Virus record (IMG/VR): IMGVR_UViG_2609460125_000012
Reading direction: 5' to 3' (one strand)
DNA: 5,564 nucleotides
Source of the DNA: a virus
Taxonomy: Duplodnaviria > Heunggongvirae > Uroviricota > Caudoviricetes
Below, piece after piece: positions 1-5,564 of this stretch (positions are counted from its first letter, which is position 1; the number at the start of each line of letters is the position of its first letter). The notes under the pieces are model-generated. The model worked only from the letters and a program-made list of their open reading frames with translations, was not told the origin of the DNA and ran no database searches. The position numbers and the translations under genes are program-made.

Positions 1-51
1 CTGCATGACAAGGTCATCGGGCATTATCTGAACATAAAACACTATCAGTAA
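1..51 (+). CDS. insB: IS1 transposase InsB, C-terminal end (partial; 5' end outside window)
   Basis: In-frame translation [16 protein letters not shown] with TAA stop at 49-51, 15 bp inside the IS1 terminus. Confidence 0.85.
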   Translation: MHDKVIGHYLNIKHYQ

Positions 52-66
52 GTTGGAGTCATTACC
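1..66 (+). mobile_element. IS1 insertion sequence, right (insB-proximal) terminus; body of element lies upstream of the window
   Basis: Bases 1-51 read in frame as ...[16 protein letters not shown]-stop, which I recognise as the InsB C-terminus, followed by the IS1 terminal inverted repeat gttggagtcattacc ending at 66. Bases 1-66 are the exact reverse complement of 5363-5428. Confidence 0.9.
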
Positions 67-254
67 GAATCGGGCAATGGCCATGCGATACCGGATGCAA
101 GAAATCGCTGAAAAAGCGTATGTATTGTGGAATGACTGAGACCCAGACGCTGAGCGATGGCCCGGATGGTCAGTTTATCTTCAAATCTTAAACGCAGGGC
201 ATCAGGCAAATAAGAACGGAAGCAGGGAATATCTTTTGTTGTCTGGGAATTCAT
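67..254 (-). pseudogene. Transposase-like HTH protein, N-terminal 62 codons only; reading frame runs into IS1 (ORF 45..254)
   Basis: Translation MNSQTTKDIPCFRSYLPDALRLRFEDKLTIRAIAQRLGLSHSTIHTLFQRFLASGIAWPLPD contains a classic helix-turn-helix (TIRAIAQRLGLSHSTIHTLFQR) of the kind seen in IS30/IS21-type transposase N-termini. The frame continues into IS1 sequence and stops at 45, so the gene is interrupted. Confidence 0.4.
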
Positions 255-352
255 CGTTCGTGTCCATCAATATAGATGGGCGCGATTGTTGCCAGACAGG
301 ACAATTTTCACAAGACGTCGCTGATGGGGCGCTTACCGTAATGATGGCGACA
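67..352 (-). mobile_element. Unidentified IS-like element, left end (possibly IS21-family-like), truncated by the IS1 at 66
   Basis: On the minus strand a TG-initiated sequence (tgtcgccatcatt...) starts directly after the holin stop codon. It carries three CCCATC(A/T)-type direct repeats within about 100 bp, then an ATG at 254 opening an HTH-containing ORF. This layout resembles an IS end with transposase binding repeats; family assignment is inference. Confidence 0.35.
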
Positions 353-568
353 TTATTCACCTCTCGCAGCCTTACGCTTGTCTTCTCTGATTTTGAAGTA
401 CAGATTTGTCAGATAAGTCAGGAAGCCCAGAACCAGACTCCCCAGTACACCAATCGCAGCCCACTGTGACGGACTGACCTGATCAAGCCACTGTAAAAAC
501 CAGTAGCCAGCACTGCCTGCGGAGGTGCCGTAGGCAATGCCCGTTGAAATTTTGTCCATGGATTTCAT
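353..568 (-). CDS. Class II holin (pinholin), phage 21 S21 / EssD-EssQ family, 71 aa with dual-start motif MKSM
   Basis: ORF translation [71 protein letters not shown] matches my recollection of the phage 21 S holin (Met1 antiholin and Met4 holin starts, two TMDs, basic C-terminus). A GGAGGTGA Shine-Dalgarno lies 6 nt upstream (minus strand, 571-578). Confidence 0.9.
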
Positions 569-675
569 AGCCTCACCTCCGCAAATAACGGATGGCGTAG
601 TTTTACACTGAGAAATGAAAGGGATTTGAAAAGAAAAAACCGCAAAAGCGGGCGAAACGATATATACAGTAAGGA

Positions 676-854
676 AAGCACTCTATCCAACAAACCACTC
701 ACAGTTAATCGGAATAAAAGCAGAGTGCTTATGAATGATCGCCTGCCCGAAGGTTAGTATTTCTGCACAGCAATTTTGCAAAAAAAAGCGATCATTCATA
801 ACTTAAACGTCTTTCAGTCACTCCGGGATTTCCCATCATCGCAGACTGAAAGAC
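676..854. repeat. Three tandem long-loop inverted repeats (potential stem-loops) in the tRNA-holin spacer
   Basis: Perfect inverted repeats read directly: aagcactct 676-684 with agagtgctt 722-730 (9 bp); atgaatgatcgc 731-742 with gcgatcattcat 788-799 (12 bp); gtctttcagt 809-818 with actgaaagac 845-854 (10 bp). Confidence 0.6.
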
Positions 855-860
855 TCTGAC

Positions 861-935
<75 letters not shown>

Positions 936-938
936 ATA

Positions 939-1014
<76 letters not shown>

Positions 1015-1016
1015 AC

Positions 1017-1093
1017 TGGACCGCCACCGGGGACTCGAACCTCGCACACTCAACTTAAAGGGTTGACGCTCTTTCCTGATGAGCTAGTGGCGG
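1017..1093 (-). tRNA. Atypical tRNA or pseudo-tRNA, anticodon position reads UUU (Lys-like); C33, C1:G72, U73
   Basis: Reverse complement CCGCCACTAGCTCATCAGGAAAGAGCGTCAACCCTTTAAGTTGAGTGTGCGAGGTTCGAGTCCCCGGTGGCGGTCCA has a perfect 7-bp acceptor, perfect D-stem GCTC/GAGC, perfect anticodon stem TCAAC/GTTGA and GGTTCGAGTCC T-arm (one A.C mismatch). The anticodon loop is CCUUUAA, so the near-universal U33 is replaced by C. Confidence 0.5.
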
Positions 1094-1094
1094 T

Positions 1095-1170
1095 TGGTGG
1101 CCCTTGCTGGATTTGAACCAGCGACCTGGCGATTATGAGTCGCTCGCTCTCACCACTGAGCTAAAGGGCC
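1095..1170 (-). tRNA. tRNA with CAU anticodon, most similar to tRNA-Ile2 (lysidine type, ileX-like) rather than elongator Met
   Basis: Reverse complement GGCCCTTTAGCTCAGTGGTGAGAGCGAGCGACTCATAATCGCCAGGTCGCTGGTTCAAATCCAGCAAGGGCCACCA is a canonical cloverleaf with anticodon loop CUCAUAA. It is close to my recollection of E. coli ileX (GGCCCCTTAGCTCAGTGGTTAGAGCAGGCGACTCATAATCGC...). Confidence 0.8.
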
Positions 1171-1274
1171 GGGCGCAGGATAATAACGTTACGAAATCAA
1201 TGTTGCAAGCATTCAAAAATCACCCTTATCTCCTCCACCAGCGCATTCACCATGTCTATCCGAGATAAGTGGCA

Positions 1275-1305
1275 CAAAAAACCCGCTTGTGGGCGGGTTT
1301 TGTTT
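1275..1305 (-). terminator. Rho-independent terminator downstream of the Q-like gene (tR'-like); hairpin is bidirectional
   Basis: Stem acccgc (1281-1286) / gcgggt (1293-1298) with loop ttgtgg. On the minus strand the hairpin is followed by a U5-6 run (plus-strand A-run 1276-1280); on the plus strand it is followed by tttgtttgcttt. Confidence 0.6.
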
Positions 1306-1351
1306 GCTTTGGCCATCACGTACAAAATCGGCAAAGTATCAGATTTGCATG

Positions 1352-1380
1352 AATATATGCCTTTTAATCTACTTTTGCAA
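1352..1380 (-). promoter_or_regulatory. Candidate sigma70 late promoter (pR'-like) overlapping the 3' end of the Q-like gene
   Basis: Minus strand reads TTGCAA (1380..1375), a 17-nt spacer, then TATATT (1357..1352). The predicted start near 1345 lies about 70 nt upstream of the terminator at 1275-1305, the arrangement expected for a Q-dependent pR'/qut/tR' unit. Motif match only. Confidence 0.35.
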
Positions 1381-2059
1381 CACTTTGCTTTGAAAATGCC
1401 GTCTTTTTTTTTGAACGTGTTCTCATTACAAACAATAAAGCCTCACTATCCAGTCGGTGAAAAATGTGTTTCATTGCAACCCAGTGACGAGTAAATGTTT
1501 TGGACCAGTTTTTAGTTGTCACTCCCGCCAGTAATGCCAGCTCCTGGTATTCATAACCTTCCCCACCAAAAAGTTCTGCTTTTACTGCCTGCGCCGCCAG
1601 CCAGATTAATTTTTTCAGGCGTTCCTGCGTTTTCCCTGCAATTTTTCTGGTACCGGATTGAGCATTAAATTCATTCCACGCCCACTGTGTTATCGCGATC
1701 TGATATTCCCAACAAATACTCCCGCTGTAACACCACAACAACCAGGCTTTATAGTGCTCTTCAAGAGACAGAACAGCCCGCCGCCACGATGATGTCGAAA
1801 ACTCAACCGGACTGACCAGAGGAATTGACGTCCCCTTCGCCAGCGATTGCTTTCCCGGGATTGGTGGATTATCCCGCGTTATCATTTTTCCAGTCACTTC
1901 ATCGCGGTACCGGATTTTTTTACGCCTGTAACGCCCTGTATCGAACATGGCATTCTCTTGCCAGGCTTCAAGCTGACCTTTTGTTGCCCCACTCAAATCA
2001 GCGGTGGCGATAATGAGCTGCTCACGCACAAACTGTAAATACTGGTTATTCATGCGCAC
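1364..2059 (-). CDS. Putative late-gene antitermination protein Q-like (231 aa); function assigned mainly by position
   Basis: ORF 1364..2059 lies immediately downstream of rusA (10-nt overlap) and immediately upstream of the promoter/terminator pair, tRNA array and holin, which is the canonical lambdoid Q position. It has a C-terminal HTH-like segment (ELALLAGVTTKNWSKTFTRHW). I could not match it to lambda Q or Q21 from memory. Confidence 0.5.
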   Translation of the reverse strand: MRMNNQYLQFVREQLIIATADLSGATKGQLEAWQENAMFDTGRYRRKKIRYRDEVTGKMITRDNPPIPGKQSLAKGTSIPLVSPVEFSTSSWRRAVLSLEEHYKAWLLWCYSGSICWEYQIAITQWAWNEFNAQSGTRKIAGKTQERLKKLIWLAAQAVKAELFGGEGYEYQELALLAGVTTKNWSKTFTRHWVAMKHIFHRLDSEALLFVMRTRSKKKTAFSKQSVAKVD

Positions 2060-2415
2060 CCCAGTTCTGTGATTTTTATCCCCAGCCGCCCACCAGGAAC
2101 GAGCTGACCGCGCACAATATTGATTTCATCAAACTGCTCGTCGTCTATAAGTAGTCCAGCATGCGTCAGCGCATCCAGCGGTGCCTTCAGGATATTGTCC
2201 AGGTCACGACGGCGCTTATCCGGTGGCTCTGCAATAATCTTTATCGCCAGCCTTCCGGACAGGTTTAATTTCAGTCGCTGCTGGCGAACAATTAGCGCCA
2301 CATCACGGCGATAACGCTCACCGGCTTTTGATACAAAATATGTGCTGCCACGACGTCGCCAGTAGGTGTTCACCGTTGGCGGGTAAGGCAAAACAAATTC
2401 TATGCGTTCGGTCAT
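2050..2415 (-). CDS. rusA: Crossover junction endodeoxyribonuclease RusA (Holliday junction resolvase), 121 aa
   Basis: Translation MTERIEFVLPYPPTVNTYWRRRG...PPDKRRRDLDNILKAPLDALTHAGLLIDDEQ...GGRL shares the RusA hallmark motifs with E. coli RusA as I recall it (LPWPPS.N.YYR..., DRRRRDLDN, DALT.AG...DD.Q). Confidence 0.9.
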   Translation of the reverse strand: MTERIEFVLPYPPTVNTYWRRRGSTYFVSKAGERYRRDVALIVRQQRLKLNLSGRLAIKIIAEPPDKRRRDLDNILKAPLDALTHAGLLIDDEQFDEINIVRGQLVPGGRLGIKITELGCA

Positions 2416-3474
2416 TTATGCTTTCCACTTCAGAACACCCGAATTTCTCGCGTGCATTAAAAAACGAATCAGCAACAACAACTGACTACCGTGTTTTTCT
2501 TCAAAATCTTTTACCCCGGCGTGTAGTTCGTTATGGCATTTACGACACAGCGGAATAACAAACAAATCGTCAGCCTTTGTTCCCATCCCTCCCAGTCCAT
2601 GACCAATGATGTGGTGCGGATCATCTGCCTGATTGCCACACGTCATGCATTTCTGCGTTTTTACCCAGCGCGTGTATACAGGCATCTCTTCCCGTTGTGG
2701 TTTCTGGCGCTGGAGATACTGAGCCGGAGATTCCGGATCAACGGCAATGCTGACCACCGTCTCTTCCTGTGGTGGATTCTGTTGCTGGTGGGCGTGAGGC
2801 AGCGGCGCAAGATTTTTTGTGCGCTGCTTCAGTATGCTGGTGGCGGTCTGCTCTCCCGGCACGATGTCGCTTTCACGGTACATTGAGCGGATTTTTTCCG
2901 CACGCAACCCCAGCGAACGACGTAATACCGCTTCCGGTAGCGCGTCCGCCACCTGATTGCGGACCGCCCACCAGGATAATTCAGCCAGAGATAATTCACG
3001 CTCCTGCGTACCGCTTATTGCGTGACCGATGACGTCAATCATCCATGCTGACAGGTTTTGATGAGCAAGTTGCTCGAGTGATTCGGATGTCTGGTCACGC
3101 AGCTGGTTGTCGCAGTGCCAGCACAATACCATTGCGCCGGTACCATAACGGTGAATGACGGTTTCGCTGTGATGATAATCGCCGTGTGGCCACTGGCAGG
3201 ATTTAATATGGCGCAACAGCCAGTCAGACAATGCGCCAGCACCACCAGCAGCACGAATCACCCGTGCGTTACTGAAAAACGGCAGCAATGTTTTGTCTTC
3301 CACTAGCGGCTGGCGAACGGCAGGAACGACCCCGGACGGCAGATTACGCATGCTTTTCGGTTCCGGCTCCACCAGTACCCGGGTATTGTGGAATACCGGC
3401 ATGGATTCACGACCGGGCTTAAGGACCACCAGCCCGAGTTCCGGAACCAGAACAGGTCGAAGTAATACCCGCAC
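2416..3474 (-). CDS. DUF968-family prophage protein (YdfU-like) with Cys/His-rich HNH-like motifs; GTG start, alternative ATG at 3402
   Basis: 352-aa ORF with two Cys/His clusters: HGDYHHSETVIHRYGTGAMVLCWHCDNQ and CMTCGNQADDPHHIIGHG...PLCRKCHNELH. Size and position (upstream of rusA and Q) match the YdfU-type nin-region protein of lambdoid prophages. GGAGG lies 4 nt before the GTG at 3474. Confidence 0.65.
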   Translation of the reverse strand: MRVLLRPVLVPELGLVVLKPGRESMPVFHNTRVLVEPEPKSMRNLPSGVVPAVRQPLVEDKTLLPFFSNARVIRAAGGAGALSDWLLRHIKSCQWPHGDYHHSETVIHRYGTGAMVLCWHCDNQLRDQTSESLEQLAHQNLSAWMIDVIGHAISGTQERELSLAELSWWAVRNQVADALPEAVLRRSLGLRAEKIRSMYRESDIVPGEQTATSILKQRTKNLAPLPHAHQQQNPPQEETVVSIAVDPESPAQYLQRQKPQREEMPVYTRWVKTQKCMTCGNQADDPHHIIGHGLGGMGTKADDLFVIPLCRKCHNELHAGVKDFEEKHGSQLLLLIRFLMHARNSGVLKWKA

Positions 3475-3475
3475 A

Positions 3476-3754
3476 TTACCTCCAGATCCGTTGCTGGAAT
3501 GTGCAGGACGGACGCGGTGGCCGTTCGGAATAAGGGAGCCTGACGAAGATTATCCAGTGACGATAATCGAGACTGAGGGCTTTCTTAATCTCGTATCCGT
3601 GTCTGCGGTAGCGCTGAATCAGCCATTCAGCCTGTTCTTCGGTGCAGGGGTCGTGCTGATACCCGTCAGATTTGAATGCATGAGAACGCCGCCCGTGCCT
3701 GCTGGCAGGGGCGGCAGAGTTATCCGAATTGTAAAATTTGGTATCGTGCGCCAT
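3476..3754 (-). CDS. Hypothetical small nin-region protein (92 aa from internal ATG; ORF track extends to a GTG at 3883)
   Basis: Open frame MAHDTKFYNSDNSAAPASRHGRRSHAFKSDGYQHDPCTEEQAEWLIQRYRRHGYEIKKALSLDYRHWIIF... The longer GTG-initiated version would overlap the hok terminator hairpin, so the internal ATG is preferred. The Shine-Dalgarno is weak. It sits where Qin-type prophages carry a small gene (rem) between hok and the DUF968 gene; that homology is unverified. Confidence 0.4.
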   Translation of the reverse strand: MAHDTKFYNSDNSAAPASRHGRRSHAFKSDGYQHDPCTEEQAEWLIQRYRRHGYEIKKALSLDYRHWIIFVRLPYSERPPRPSCTFQQRIWR

Positions 3755-3825
3755 CTGTTTTCTCTGCTGGCGCAGCAGGTGCCAGTTGTTCAGGCTGACG
3801 GATGGATTGTAAACCAGAACGACCA

Positions 3826-3853
3826 GAAAAAACAAAACCCGCCGAAGCGGGTT
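3826..3853 (-). terminator. Rho-independent terminator at the 3' end of the hok mRNA
   Basis: Minus strand reads aacccgc-ttcg-gcgggtt (a UUCG tetraloop hairpin) followed by ttgttttttc; plus-strand arms are acccgc 3837-3842 and gcgggt 3847-3852. Confidence 0.7.
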
Positions 3854-3921
3854 AAGTGCGGGTGCGTTGAGGATGCCTGACACATCAGCGGTGGCGAGGG
3901 ATTTCTCCCCCGCCGGGTCTC

Positions 3922-4077
3922 TTACTCCTCAGGTTCGTAAGCTGTGAAGACAGCGACCTCCGTCTGGCCGGTTCGGATTCGTACCTCGCAGAGGTCTTTC
4001 CTCGTTACCAGTGCCGTCACTATGACGGTTAAACAGATGACGATCAGGGCGATTAACATCGCCTTTTGCTGCTTCAT
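3922..4077 (-). CDS. hokD: Hok/Gef-family type I toxin (51 aa), HokD/RelF-like
   Basis: Translation MKQQKAMLIALIVICLTVIVTALVTRKDLCEVRIRTGQTEVAVFTAYEPEE matches my recollection of HokD (RelF). AAGGAG Shine-Dalgarno sits 8 nt upstream (minus strand). The ORF track's 70-aa version starts at an in-frame upstream ATG (4134). Confidence 0.9.
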   Translation of the reverse strand: MKQQKAMLIALIVICLTVIVTALVTRKDLCEVRIRTGQTEVAVFTAYEPEE

Positions 4078-4281
4078 AGCCTGCTTCTCCTTGCCTTTCG
4101 GCACGTAAGAGGCTAACCTACATGTGTTCAGCATGGATTGAGCCTCAGATTAATGTTAAGCGTCTTGCAGGACGCGTAATGTTAACTGGGGCTTTTCTCT
4201 ATCTGCCTTTTGGTGTTCATGCCTGAGACAGATAGCCTCAAGCACCCGCAGTCATTCTACTTAACTAAGATTTCCCTGCAA
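4078..4281 (-). promoter_or_regulatory. hok mRNA leader with candidate promoter, 5' tac-like element and mok-equivalent start
   Basis: Minus-strand -35 TTGCAG (4281..4276), 16-nt spacer, -10 TAGAAT (4259..4254). The predicted 5' end tgcgggtgcttgaggc resembles the plasmid R1 hok mRNA 5' end as I recall it. An upstream ATG at 4134 sits at the position mok occupies in R1. The 5' segment (about 4236-4250) is complementary to the 3' segment cctcaacgcacccgca near 3855-3875. Confidence 0.5.
4126..4195 (+). ncRNA. Candidate Sok-like antisense RNA (coordinates approximate)
   Basis: On the plus strand, TTGCCT (4091-4096), a 17-nt spacer, then TAACCT (4114-4119) form a promoter-like pair antisense to the mok/hok translation initiation region. 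A downstream hairpin gcgtc-ttgcag-gacgc lies at 4160-4175. This matches the position of sok in hok/sok loci. Inferred, not verified. Confidence 0.35.
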
Positions 4282-4336
4282 ACCGTTTTTGTCCGGCACA
4301 GTAAATATCCAACTAAACCAATAGCGTTCGCTGTAT

Positions 4337-4516
4337 TTACCGCCAGTATTCAATGCACATGACCGCCATGAACACCCCTAAAAAAAGGGCATTTATATGT
4401 CCAAACATTAATATCAAAACATCAATTTTTTCCATATACCTTGCTGTGAAGATGATGGGCATACATGATGCGAACAACCAGAACGCAACAAACAAAAACT
4501 GCAATGCGTTTTTCAT
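4337..4516 (-). CDS. Hypothetical small hydrophobic peptide (59 aa, two predicted TM segments) in an AT-rich island
   Basis: Frame MKNALQFLFVAFWLFASCMPIIFTARYMEKIDVLILMFGHINALFLGVFMAVMCIEYWR with AGGGGG Shine-Dalgarno about 6 nt upstream of the ATG at 4516. The surrounding region (about 4340-4700) is markedly AT-rich, so this could also be a chance ORF in a regulatory region. Confidence 0.25.
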   Translation of the reverse strand: MKNALQFLFVAFWLFASCMPIIFTARYMEKIDVLILMFGHINALFLGVFMAVMCIEYWR

Positions 4517-4728
4517 TATTCCCCCTACAATCAATGTGCAATAACATTTAAACACACCTCAATTTGGCCGGACATATAAATATCTAAACCAGAAAAAATC
4601 ACTTACATAGCGTTACAAACTCTTTAGTCTAAATACTCATCGTAAAACATTCCCCATACTTATCAGTCCGTTCCGCGCCAGGTAGCTTATTGCCTTATCT
4701 GGCAACCTATAATCAGGTTTCCGCTTTT

Positions 4729-5151
4729 TCAGTTGGCTGGTCGTTTAACCGACATAGTTAACCCATTAATCTGGTTGCCGGATGCTGGTGGATTTTCGCG
4801 TTTTAATTGTTCATAAAAGTGCACAGCTTTAACCAGTTCTTCTGATGTAACCGGGACTGGTGGGGCAGTGAATAAGGCCTGAATTTCATAGTTCGGCCTG
4901 TCGTTACAATCCTCTTTTTTCGGTACATATTTCCAGTCACCAACCCACAACTCCCCCTGAGAGTCCATAACACCTTTTTTCACGTAGCGATATCGCCACG
5001 CTATCGGCTCTGCTTCCAGCGATGCCCGTGCAATTTTGAATAACTCGCCCTCTACTCGCGCCATCCCTGAATTGGGGTGGCATTTCGTAATCGCTATTTT
5101 TAATTTGGCTTCTTCGATTAATTGTTCTTTTGTTAATTCAGTCATTTTCAT
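4729..5151 (-). CDS. Hypothetical protein, 140 aa, no family recognised
   Basis: Clean 140-codon ORF (MKMTELTKEQLIEEAKLKIAITK...WVGDWKYVPKKEDCNDRP...) with balanced composition and a TTA-rich codon choice suggesting foreign origin. The antisense ORF 5036..5224 is less plausible. Confidence 0.55.
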   Translation of the reverse strand: MKMTELTKEQLIEEAKLKIAITKCHPNSGMARVEGELFKIARASLEAEPIAWRYRYVKKGVMDSQGELWVGDWKYVPKKEDCNDRPNYEIQALFTAPPVPVTSEELVKAVHFYEQLKRENPPASGNQINGLTMSVKRPAN

Positions 5152-5362
5152 TACCGCCCTGGTAATGCTGCCACCAGCGAAAATGGTTAATGGAAAACGG
5201 GCTTCCGTTCTATACCAATCGTAGTGGCAAACCGATTGTCAGCCGGGATCTATTTACCTGCAATAAAACTTTACCACCACGCGAGGTAGAGCCGAATTTT
5301 GGTGCGATCTGATGGGAAGACGAAGGAAAAATCCTGAACACGAAAAATTACCTCCAAATGTA

Positions 5363-5564
5363 GGTAATGACTCCAACTTACTGATAGTGTTTTATGTTCA
5401 GATAATGCCCGATGACCTTGTCATGCAGCTCCACCGATTTTGAGAACGACAGTGACTTCCGTACCAGCCTTGCCAGATGTTGTCTCAGATTCAGATTATG
5501 TCGCTCAATGCGCTGAGTGTAACGCTTGCTGATAACGTGCAGCTTTCCCTTCAGGCGTGATTCA
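5363..5564 (-). mobile_element. IS1 insertion sequence, right terminus, inverted relative to the copy at 1-66; body continues beyond window end
   Basis: ggtaatgactccaacttactgatag... from 5363 is the IS1 terminal inverted repeat. 5363-5428 is the exact reverse complement of 1-66, and the internal sequence continues as IS1-like insB-region sequence to 5564. Confidence 0.9.
5378..5564 (-). CDS. insB: IS1 transposase InsB, C-terminal part (partial; 5' end outside window)
   Basis: Reverse complement of 5378-5428 encodes ...[16 protein letters not shown]-stop, identical to 1-51. The frame stays open to the window edge. Confidence 0.85.

Follow-up and report, generated by a model that had tools for sequence, protein, structure and literature searches.

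What kind of protein does a piece of lambdoid prophage encode at its Q position, and what does the DNA that follows this gene do? In the 5,564-nucleotide stretch of viral DNA analysed here (the window), an open reading frame of 231 codons runs into a promoter-like site and a hairpin, and an earlier note had taken its product for a divergent Q-like antiterminator, perhaps of a less-studied family. We find that the region is very probably the late-gene switch of a phage-82-type lambdoid prophage, made up of a Q82-family antiterminator, the late promoter PR', a pause element and the terminator tR'. The sequence itself establishes the family of the protein, the place of its gene, and that a promoter, a pause element and a terminator are present in the proper register.

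The locus and its neighbours

The genes of interest in the window all lie on the minus strand, in the order (in the direction of transcription) hok, a small ORF, DUF968/HNH, rusA, Q, four tRNA genes and holin. The closest complete genome, that of E. coli FDAARGOS_944 (99.6% identity over 337-5160), has the order hokD, DUF968, rusA, Q, tRNAs and holin and runs on into lysozyme, Rz and terminase. The window therefore represents the early-to-late junction of a lambdoid prophage.

The hok toxin gene (3922-4134, minus strand; Pfam HOK_GEF, E 3e-23) is hokD in the annotation of the closest genome, and the sok antisense RNA is found at 4072-4247 (minus strand; Rfam RF01794, 118.9 bits), so that a complete hok/sok type I toxin-antitoxin locus is present at 3922-4247 on the minus strand. 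Two further minus-strand ORFs, of 140 aa (4729-5151) and of 72 aa and hydrophobic (4337-4555), have no Pfam or NCBIfam match; the former is a 'hypothetical protein' in the closest genome. A terminator-like hairpin, AACCCGCTTCGGCGGGTT with a T-run (3826-3853, minus strand), falls within the 5' part of a 135-aa ORF (3476-3883). RefSeq gives just a 92-aa protein at this place in FDAARGOS_944, and the real gene therefore probably begins only after the hairpin, which would stand between hok and the nin-type genes. The DUF968/HNH protein (2416-3474, minus strand) is followed by rusA (2050-2415, minus strand; Pfam PF05866, E 8.7e-16), the upstream neighbour of Q. In phage 82, rusA is likewise upstream of Q, but ylcG/orf45 stands between them; the window has no ylcG-like ORF there.

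Between tR' and holin, where they would be the first genes met by read-through from PR', are four tRNA genes (861..1170, minus strand) identified by ARAGORN, Rfam and the RefSeq annotation of the closest genome: one with a CAT anticodon, Lys-TTT, Thr-TGT and Gly-TCC. The CAT tRNA is Met according to ARAGORN and tRNA-Ile according to RefSeq, and is probably of the lysidine-modified Ile2 type. This array distinguishes the window from phage 82; in other Q82-type phages, the tRNA genes at this position are different ones or are missing altogether. The first late protein gene encodes a class II holin of the phage 21 S type (353..568, minus strand; Pfam PF04971, E 1.4e-35).

The lysozyme gene, which comes next after holin in the relatives, is absent from the window, and similarity to the relatives ends near 337-366, just past holin. 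A 69-aa ORF with an HTH (45-254, minus strand) corresponds to the N-terminal 53 positions of the IS66-like accessory protein TnpA (NCBIfam NF038385, E 2.5e-22, a match below the cut-off of the model, the ORF being a fragment). As this TnpA-like ORF occupies the lysozyme position of the relatives, insertion sequences have probably truncated the lysis cassette. Positions 1-66 and 5357-5564 share the same end sequence, GGTAATGACTCCAACTTACTGATAG..., facing inwards, and are presumably IS1 termini, which suggests that this 5.3-kb piece of prophage is bracketed by two inverted IS1 copies.

The Q gene encodes an ordinary Q82-family antiterminator

The mechanically called ORF (1364..2059, minus strand) comprises 231 aa from a GTG to the stop codon TAA at 1366-1364. 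Translation probably starts at ATG 2053 rather than at GTG 2059, giving a gene at 1364..2053 and a protein of 229 aa. This start is preferred because 229 aa is the length of phage 82 Q, because the ATG (2053-2051) overlaps the rusA stop codon (2052-2050) as ATGA, and because a few bases before it there is a GGGG run, which resembles a Shine-Dalgarno sequence.

The lambdoid Q antiterminators fall into three unrelated families, Q82 (PF06323), lambda Q (PF03589) and Q21 (PF06530) (PMC9388147, PMC7171158). The Pfam search that the earlier note had proposed returned PF06323 at 306.1 bits (cut-off 25; E 1.9e-91), residues 6-221 aligning with positions 1-216 of the 220 in the profile; this full-length match above the curated threshold places the protein in the Q82 family. 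It is not a divergent Q, then, but a full-length, high-scoring member. Its position is that of the family as well, at the end of the nin/rusA region and directly upstream of the late genes.

Comparison with phage 82 Q itself (X92588) gave a gapless alignment of two proteins of equal length with 173 of 229 residues identical (76%, 24% differing) and 193 of 229 positive. In a tblastn search against phage records, X92588 was found at 76% identity and phage 434 Q, described as 'Q82-like', at 73%. A large protein search produced 2,738 clusters; all 120 clusters listed carry PF06323, and those of the 120 that have a name are called antiterminator or antitermination protein Q, as are the relatives in RefSeq and GenBank (antitermination protein Q). 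NCBI already lists an identical 229-aa sequence from Shigella flexneri and E. coli under the name 'bacteriophage antitermination protein Q', and this exact protein is present on 19 contigs. The ORF is thus an ordinary, already annotated member of a known antiterminator family, and the proposal that it encodes a Q-like antiterminator at the lambdoid Q position holds.

No confident match to a non-antiterminator family was found in Pfam, in a PDB sequence search or in NCBIfam, which has no model for the protein. The PDB sequence search yielded no solved relative, its single match being weak and spurious (a phage lysin, E 0.014). There was no Pfam match to lambda Q, and hhalign detected no homology between the Q82 alignment and lambda Q (probability 0.2%). 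The protein shows no sequence similarity to AlpA of Pseudomonas aeruginosa or to phage 21 Q, which binds a direct repeat as a dimer; PF06530 gave no match at E <= 0.01, and the PDB search no sequence match to Q21 entries.

The remark that the protein has no CxxC motif like that of lambda Q is correct. Its two cysteines are C108 and C114, which are S and R in phage 82 Q; lambda Q, by contrast, has a four-ligand zinc ribbon. In published AlphaFold models, 82 Q and lambda Q are both AlpA-like, with the zinc finger of lambda Q as an insertion (Wen et al. 2022, PMC9371919). The protein of the window does not belong to the lambda Q family, and its resemblance to lambda Q at the level of the fold is restricted to the helical body. 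The family can hardly be called less studied, phage 82 Q having a substantial biochemical literature (PMC5001585, PMC4914094); what it lacks is an experimental structure. Q82 is the sole one of the three families without one, which raises the question of whether it, too, forms a closed nozzle (PMC9388147). The result of our PDB search agrees with these published statements.

Our own AlphaFold model was built from a shallow alignment (83 family members, 69-97% identity) and has a mean pLDDT of 67, with four of the five models scoring <=50. Residues 85-220 are modelled as all-helical with block means of 74 to 91, and the N-terminal 85 residues are poor. The C-terminal HTH-like segment put forward earlier is compatible with two predicted helices, 169-176 and 180-186. 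A helix pair of this kind might also be expected if the protein were a DNA-binding activator or repressor that shares an HTH with Q proteins and is no antiterminator, and the phage 434 record does name its homologue a 'transcriptional activator/anti-terminator'. We regard this reading as extremely unlikely, given that the protein is 76% identical to the one used in the published phage 82 Q antitermination assays (PMC4914094), that PF06323 is covered at full length, and that the cognate pause and terminator elements are present. The preferred assignment remains that of a Q82-family antiterminator.

The late promoter overlaps the end of Q

A site TTGCAA-17-TATATT overlapping the 3' end of the ORF had been noted before, and our scan located it at 1380-1352 (minus strand) with a score of 9/12. 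Its -35 hexamer, TTGCAA (1375..1380), lies within the last Q codons; the 17-nt spacer, AAGTAGATTAAAAGGCA (1358..1374), holds the Q stop codon; and the -10 hexamer is TATATT (1352..1357). The scan by itself performed at chance level, finding 11 sites in the window where shuffled sequences gave 7.7 +/- 2.7. Since the consensus match alone is not above chance, the assignment of this site as PR' rests on conservation. TTGCAA occurs at the same codons in phage 82, phage 434 and the Salmonella, Enterobacter and Klebsiella phages, and is TTGAAA in Cronobacter phiES15, while the relatives have TATATT, TATACT, TACATT or CATATT as the -10 at a 17-nt spacing.

The phage 82 pR' transcript begins with AAA (PMC5001585). 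The corresponding AAA in the window (1344..1346, minus strand) is by position and analogy with phage 82 the probable transcription start, and we take 1346 as +1; AAA is found at this place in 9 of the 11 alleles compared. It stands 5 nt after the -10 in the window, as against 6 nt in all but one of the relatives. For 82 Q, the Q-binding element (QBE) lies between -35 and -10 (PMC4914094). The spacer of the window agrees with the phage-82-type spacer at 14 of 17 bases, in DNA that also encodes the Q C-terminus and stop codon, and would by its position be the expected place of the QBE.

On the strand opposite to Q, TTGCAACACTTTGC (1375-1388, plus strand) is a perfect TTGC-N6-TTGC CII-type box overlapping the palindromic -35 TTGCAA. 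It is the single such match in the window, where 0.46 would be expected by chance. Phage 434 has a box of this type overlapping the -35 in the same way, and its record marks this site both as bound by CII and as the -35 of paQ, an antisense promoter; phage 82 has TTGCAATATTTTGC at this position. The plus strand of the window has no good -10 after the box, and the box is absent from the Klebsiella and Salmonella relatives.

A second site, TTGCAA-17-TATTAT (1208-1180, minus strand), raises the question of whether this might be the main or Q-responsive promoter and the site at 1380-1352 a chance match. It, too, scores 9/12 in the scan, and close relatives retain it despite an indel of ~15 nt just upstream. 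However, it lies downstream of tR', has no -10-like pause element after it, and ends 9 nt before the first tRNA gene, running straight into it as a tRNA promoter would. The site at 1380-1352 is instead conserved in position in distant Q82-type phages that lack such a tRNA array, and the pause signature of phage 82 comes after it. We therefore consider it very unlikely that the second site is the late promoter and retain 1380-1352 as PR'; the second site may provide the prophage tRNA genes with Q-independent expression.

A sigma-dependent pause element follows the start site

What makes such a unit responsive to Q is the pause element, which the earlier note overlooked. In 82 pR', this element is near-consensus and -10-like with an extended -10, has GCC at +15-17 and an A/T-rich segment at +18-25, and causes a pause at +25/+26, with U at +25 (PMC5001585). 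The window fits this description of a sigma70-dependent pause element at 1330..1341 (minus strand), with TGA at +6 to +8 as the extended -10-like part, TACTTT at +9 to +14 as the -10-like hexamer and GCC at +15 to +17. These are followed by the A/T-rich segment GATTTTGT (1322..1329, +18 to +25), which ends at the predicted pause site, T +25 (1322).

A blastn search of the PR'-tR' segment against the phage collection returned no separate record of the phage 82 late promoter, and the comparison with 82 pR' was made through prophages with an identical Q gene and through the published verbal description. Prophages whose Q gene is identical to that of phage 82 at 690 of 690 positions carry AAATCTGATATTTTGCCAATGTTGTA downstream, including TGA TATTTT GCC, a sequence that fits every published feature of 82 pR' (AAA, extended -10, GCC, A/T-rich +18-25 and U at +25). 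The corresponding sequence of the window, AAATCTGATACTTTGCCGATTTTGTA, keeps this register and shares 23 of the 26 bases.

The window and phage 82 thus share promoter hexamers, the 17-nt spacer, AAA, TGA at +6-8, GCC at +15-17 and T at +25. They differ in the pause hexamer (TACTTT in the window, TATTTT in the phage 82 type) and in the gap between -10 and +1 (5 nt versus 6). An 82-type pause element is therefore present downstream of Q, with one substitution at an otherwise invariant hexamer position. Since the window has the phage-82-type layout in the same register, we identify the promoter-like site as PR' and the hairpin that follows as tR'.

The intrinsic terminator tR'

The tR' terminator (1273..1301, minus strand) was recognized by folding and by a plus-strand scan match. 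On the minus strand it forms the hairpin AAAACCCGC-CCACAA-GCGGGUUUU (1301-1278), with a 9-bp stem (1301-1293/1286-1278), a 6-nt loop and a run of six U at 1281-1276 (GCGGG, then UUUUUUGUG). The scan listed the hairpin for the plus strand only because the first U residues were counted as stem on the minus strand. The centroid structure, at -13 kcal/mol, consists of this hairpin alone, and Rfam contains no known RNA family for the PR'-tR' leader. The earlier description of a strong bidirectional hairpin stands for the minus strand, with its -13 kcal/mol and U6; the plus strand folds too, so that bidirectionality is structurally plausible, but its tail, GTTTGCTTTG, is poorer. With +1 at 1346, the U-run falls at +66 to +71, in agreement with the distance of about 70 nt from the promoter given before, and the terminator lies between the pause site and the late genes, as in the Q82 family.

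Phage 82 also has an intrinsic terminator within 100 nt; that of the window is unrelated to it in sequence and ~10 nt closer. Among the relatives, a hairpin of -9 to -16 kcal/mol and a T-run are found at +47 to +98. The exceptions are Salmonella ZC-S1_prp, where the hairpin is weak (-4.0 kcal/mol), and Cronobacter phiES15, where the pattern was unmatched and the hairpin was seen by reading the sequence. As the terminator sequences are unrelated between phages, what is conserved there is the function and not the sequence. In lambda, the pause is at +16/17 and the terminated RNA ends at +193 (PMC5001585, PMC4914094).

The module is conserved across Q82-type phages

We compared the DNA after the Q stop codon in phage 434, five Salmonella, Enterobacter and Klebsiella phages, one Cronobacter phage, the closest E. 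coli genome, the common E. coli allele and the prophages with the phage 82 Q gene. The layout (-35, 17 nt, -10, AAA, TGn with a -10-like hexamer, G/C-rich triplet, terminator) was found in 10 other alleles from E. coli, Salmonella, Enterobacter and Klebsiella, and the module is also present in 78 of 80 close viral contigs. After the -10, these alleles have six bases, AAAT(C/T) (TACTT in Klebsiella phage 2), TGn, a hexamer starting TAT, and the G/C-rich triplet. The Cronobacter phage has a looser layout, with TTGAAA, a longer spacer and a poor -10.

Phage 434 resembles the window in that the final codons of Q contain its -35 and that a terminator follows the Q stop codon at a distance of 49-74 nt. 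It differs in the triplet (GTA at +15-17, the exception to the G/C-rich rule), in a shorter leader with the T-run at +47, and in the genes that come next. A compact promoter-terminator unit, which the earlier note had singled out as a system for antitermination studies, is therefore normal for this family, and an in vitro model already exists in phage 82 pR' (PMC5001585, PMC4914094).

From phage 82 work and from other Q families, the operation of such a switch can be outlined. RNA polymerase would start at the AAA near 1346, by analogy with the phage 82 literature; sigma70 would then re-bind TGnTACTTT at +6 to +14, and the complex would pause near +25. Q bound in the promoter spacer would load onto the paused complex, with NusA helping, and the Q-modified polymerase would pass the hairpin at 1301-1278 and reach the tRNA genes and holin. 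Without Q, a terminated RNA of ~70 nt would be expected.

Is this copy of the switch still functional?

The window differs from the common allele in four respects: the Q stop codon is TAA instead of TGA, one T is missing between the -10 and AAA, position 3 of the pause hexamer is C instead of T, and there is one more substitution downstream of the pause site. Hexamer position 3 is T in all 10 other alleles and in the 78 module-carrying contigs among the 80 close ones fetched. The 1-nt deletion between -10 and start is shared only with E. coli FDAARGOS_944, whose Q (L001 4028-4716) is annotated as a frameshifted pseudogene; the Q of the window is intact. The 131-nt segment was found at >=99% identity in none of 5,426 complete E. 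coli genomes. Either the pause hexamer change or the shorter -10-to-AAA gap could weaken pausing or Q loading.

These observations bear on the possibility that the unit is a relic, in which the Q ORF is intact but the switch is dead, the late operon is truncated, and Q and PR' are decaying prophage DNA. The change of TAT to TAC in the pause hexamer and the reduction of the -10-to-start spacing from 6 to 5 nt would be expected of a relic. So would the sharing of the 1-nt deletion with a genome where Q is frameshifted, the absence of the segment from complete E. coli genomes at that identity, the loss of similarity to intact relatives just after holin and the IS1 ends at 1-66 and 5357-5564. On the other hand, the Q frame is intact and of prototype length, the hexamer keeps its A (position 2) and T (position 6) as well as the preceding TG, and the occurrence of the exact protein on 19 contigs indicates that the allele is maintained at least clonally. 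Start-site choice also tolerates 1-nt shifts, which counts against a dead switch. We therefore judge a wholly dead switch to be a serious possibility, though one we doubt. The variant bases, the truncated lysis cassette and the IS1 flanks nevertheless make partial decay of the switch plausible, though less likely than not.

Of a phage-82-type late switch with these changes, it may tentatively be proposed, although we think it rather unlikely, that the window presents a natural variant loading site, in which the altered pause hexamer and the shorter distance from the promoter and presumed QBE to the pause have retuned or abolished Q engagement. If so, nature would have inactivated or attenuated a late switch within a prophage remnant, bounded by IS1, that keeps Q, four tRNAs and holin, and work on the 82 pR' system would have a spacing and pause mutant ready to hand.

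Significance

The gene, its family, the cis elements and the fold-level likeness to lambda Q and AlpA are already in the literature or in public annotation. The region is a textbook element in a degraded prophage, and matters little beyond correct annotation. Any well-behaved Q82 member with a compact cognate template would suit structural work, and phage 82 already serves in this role. For annotation, what the comparison offers is a simple signature by which the late promoter of Q82-type prophages can be recognized: TTGCAA in the last Q codons, 17 nt, TATATT, AAA, TGnTAT... and GCC.
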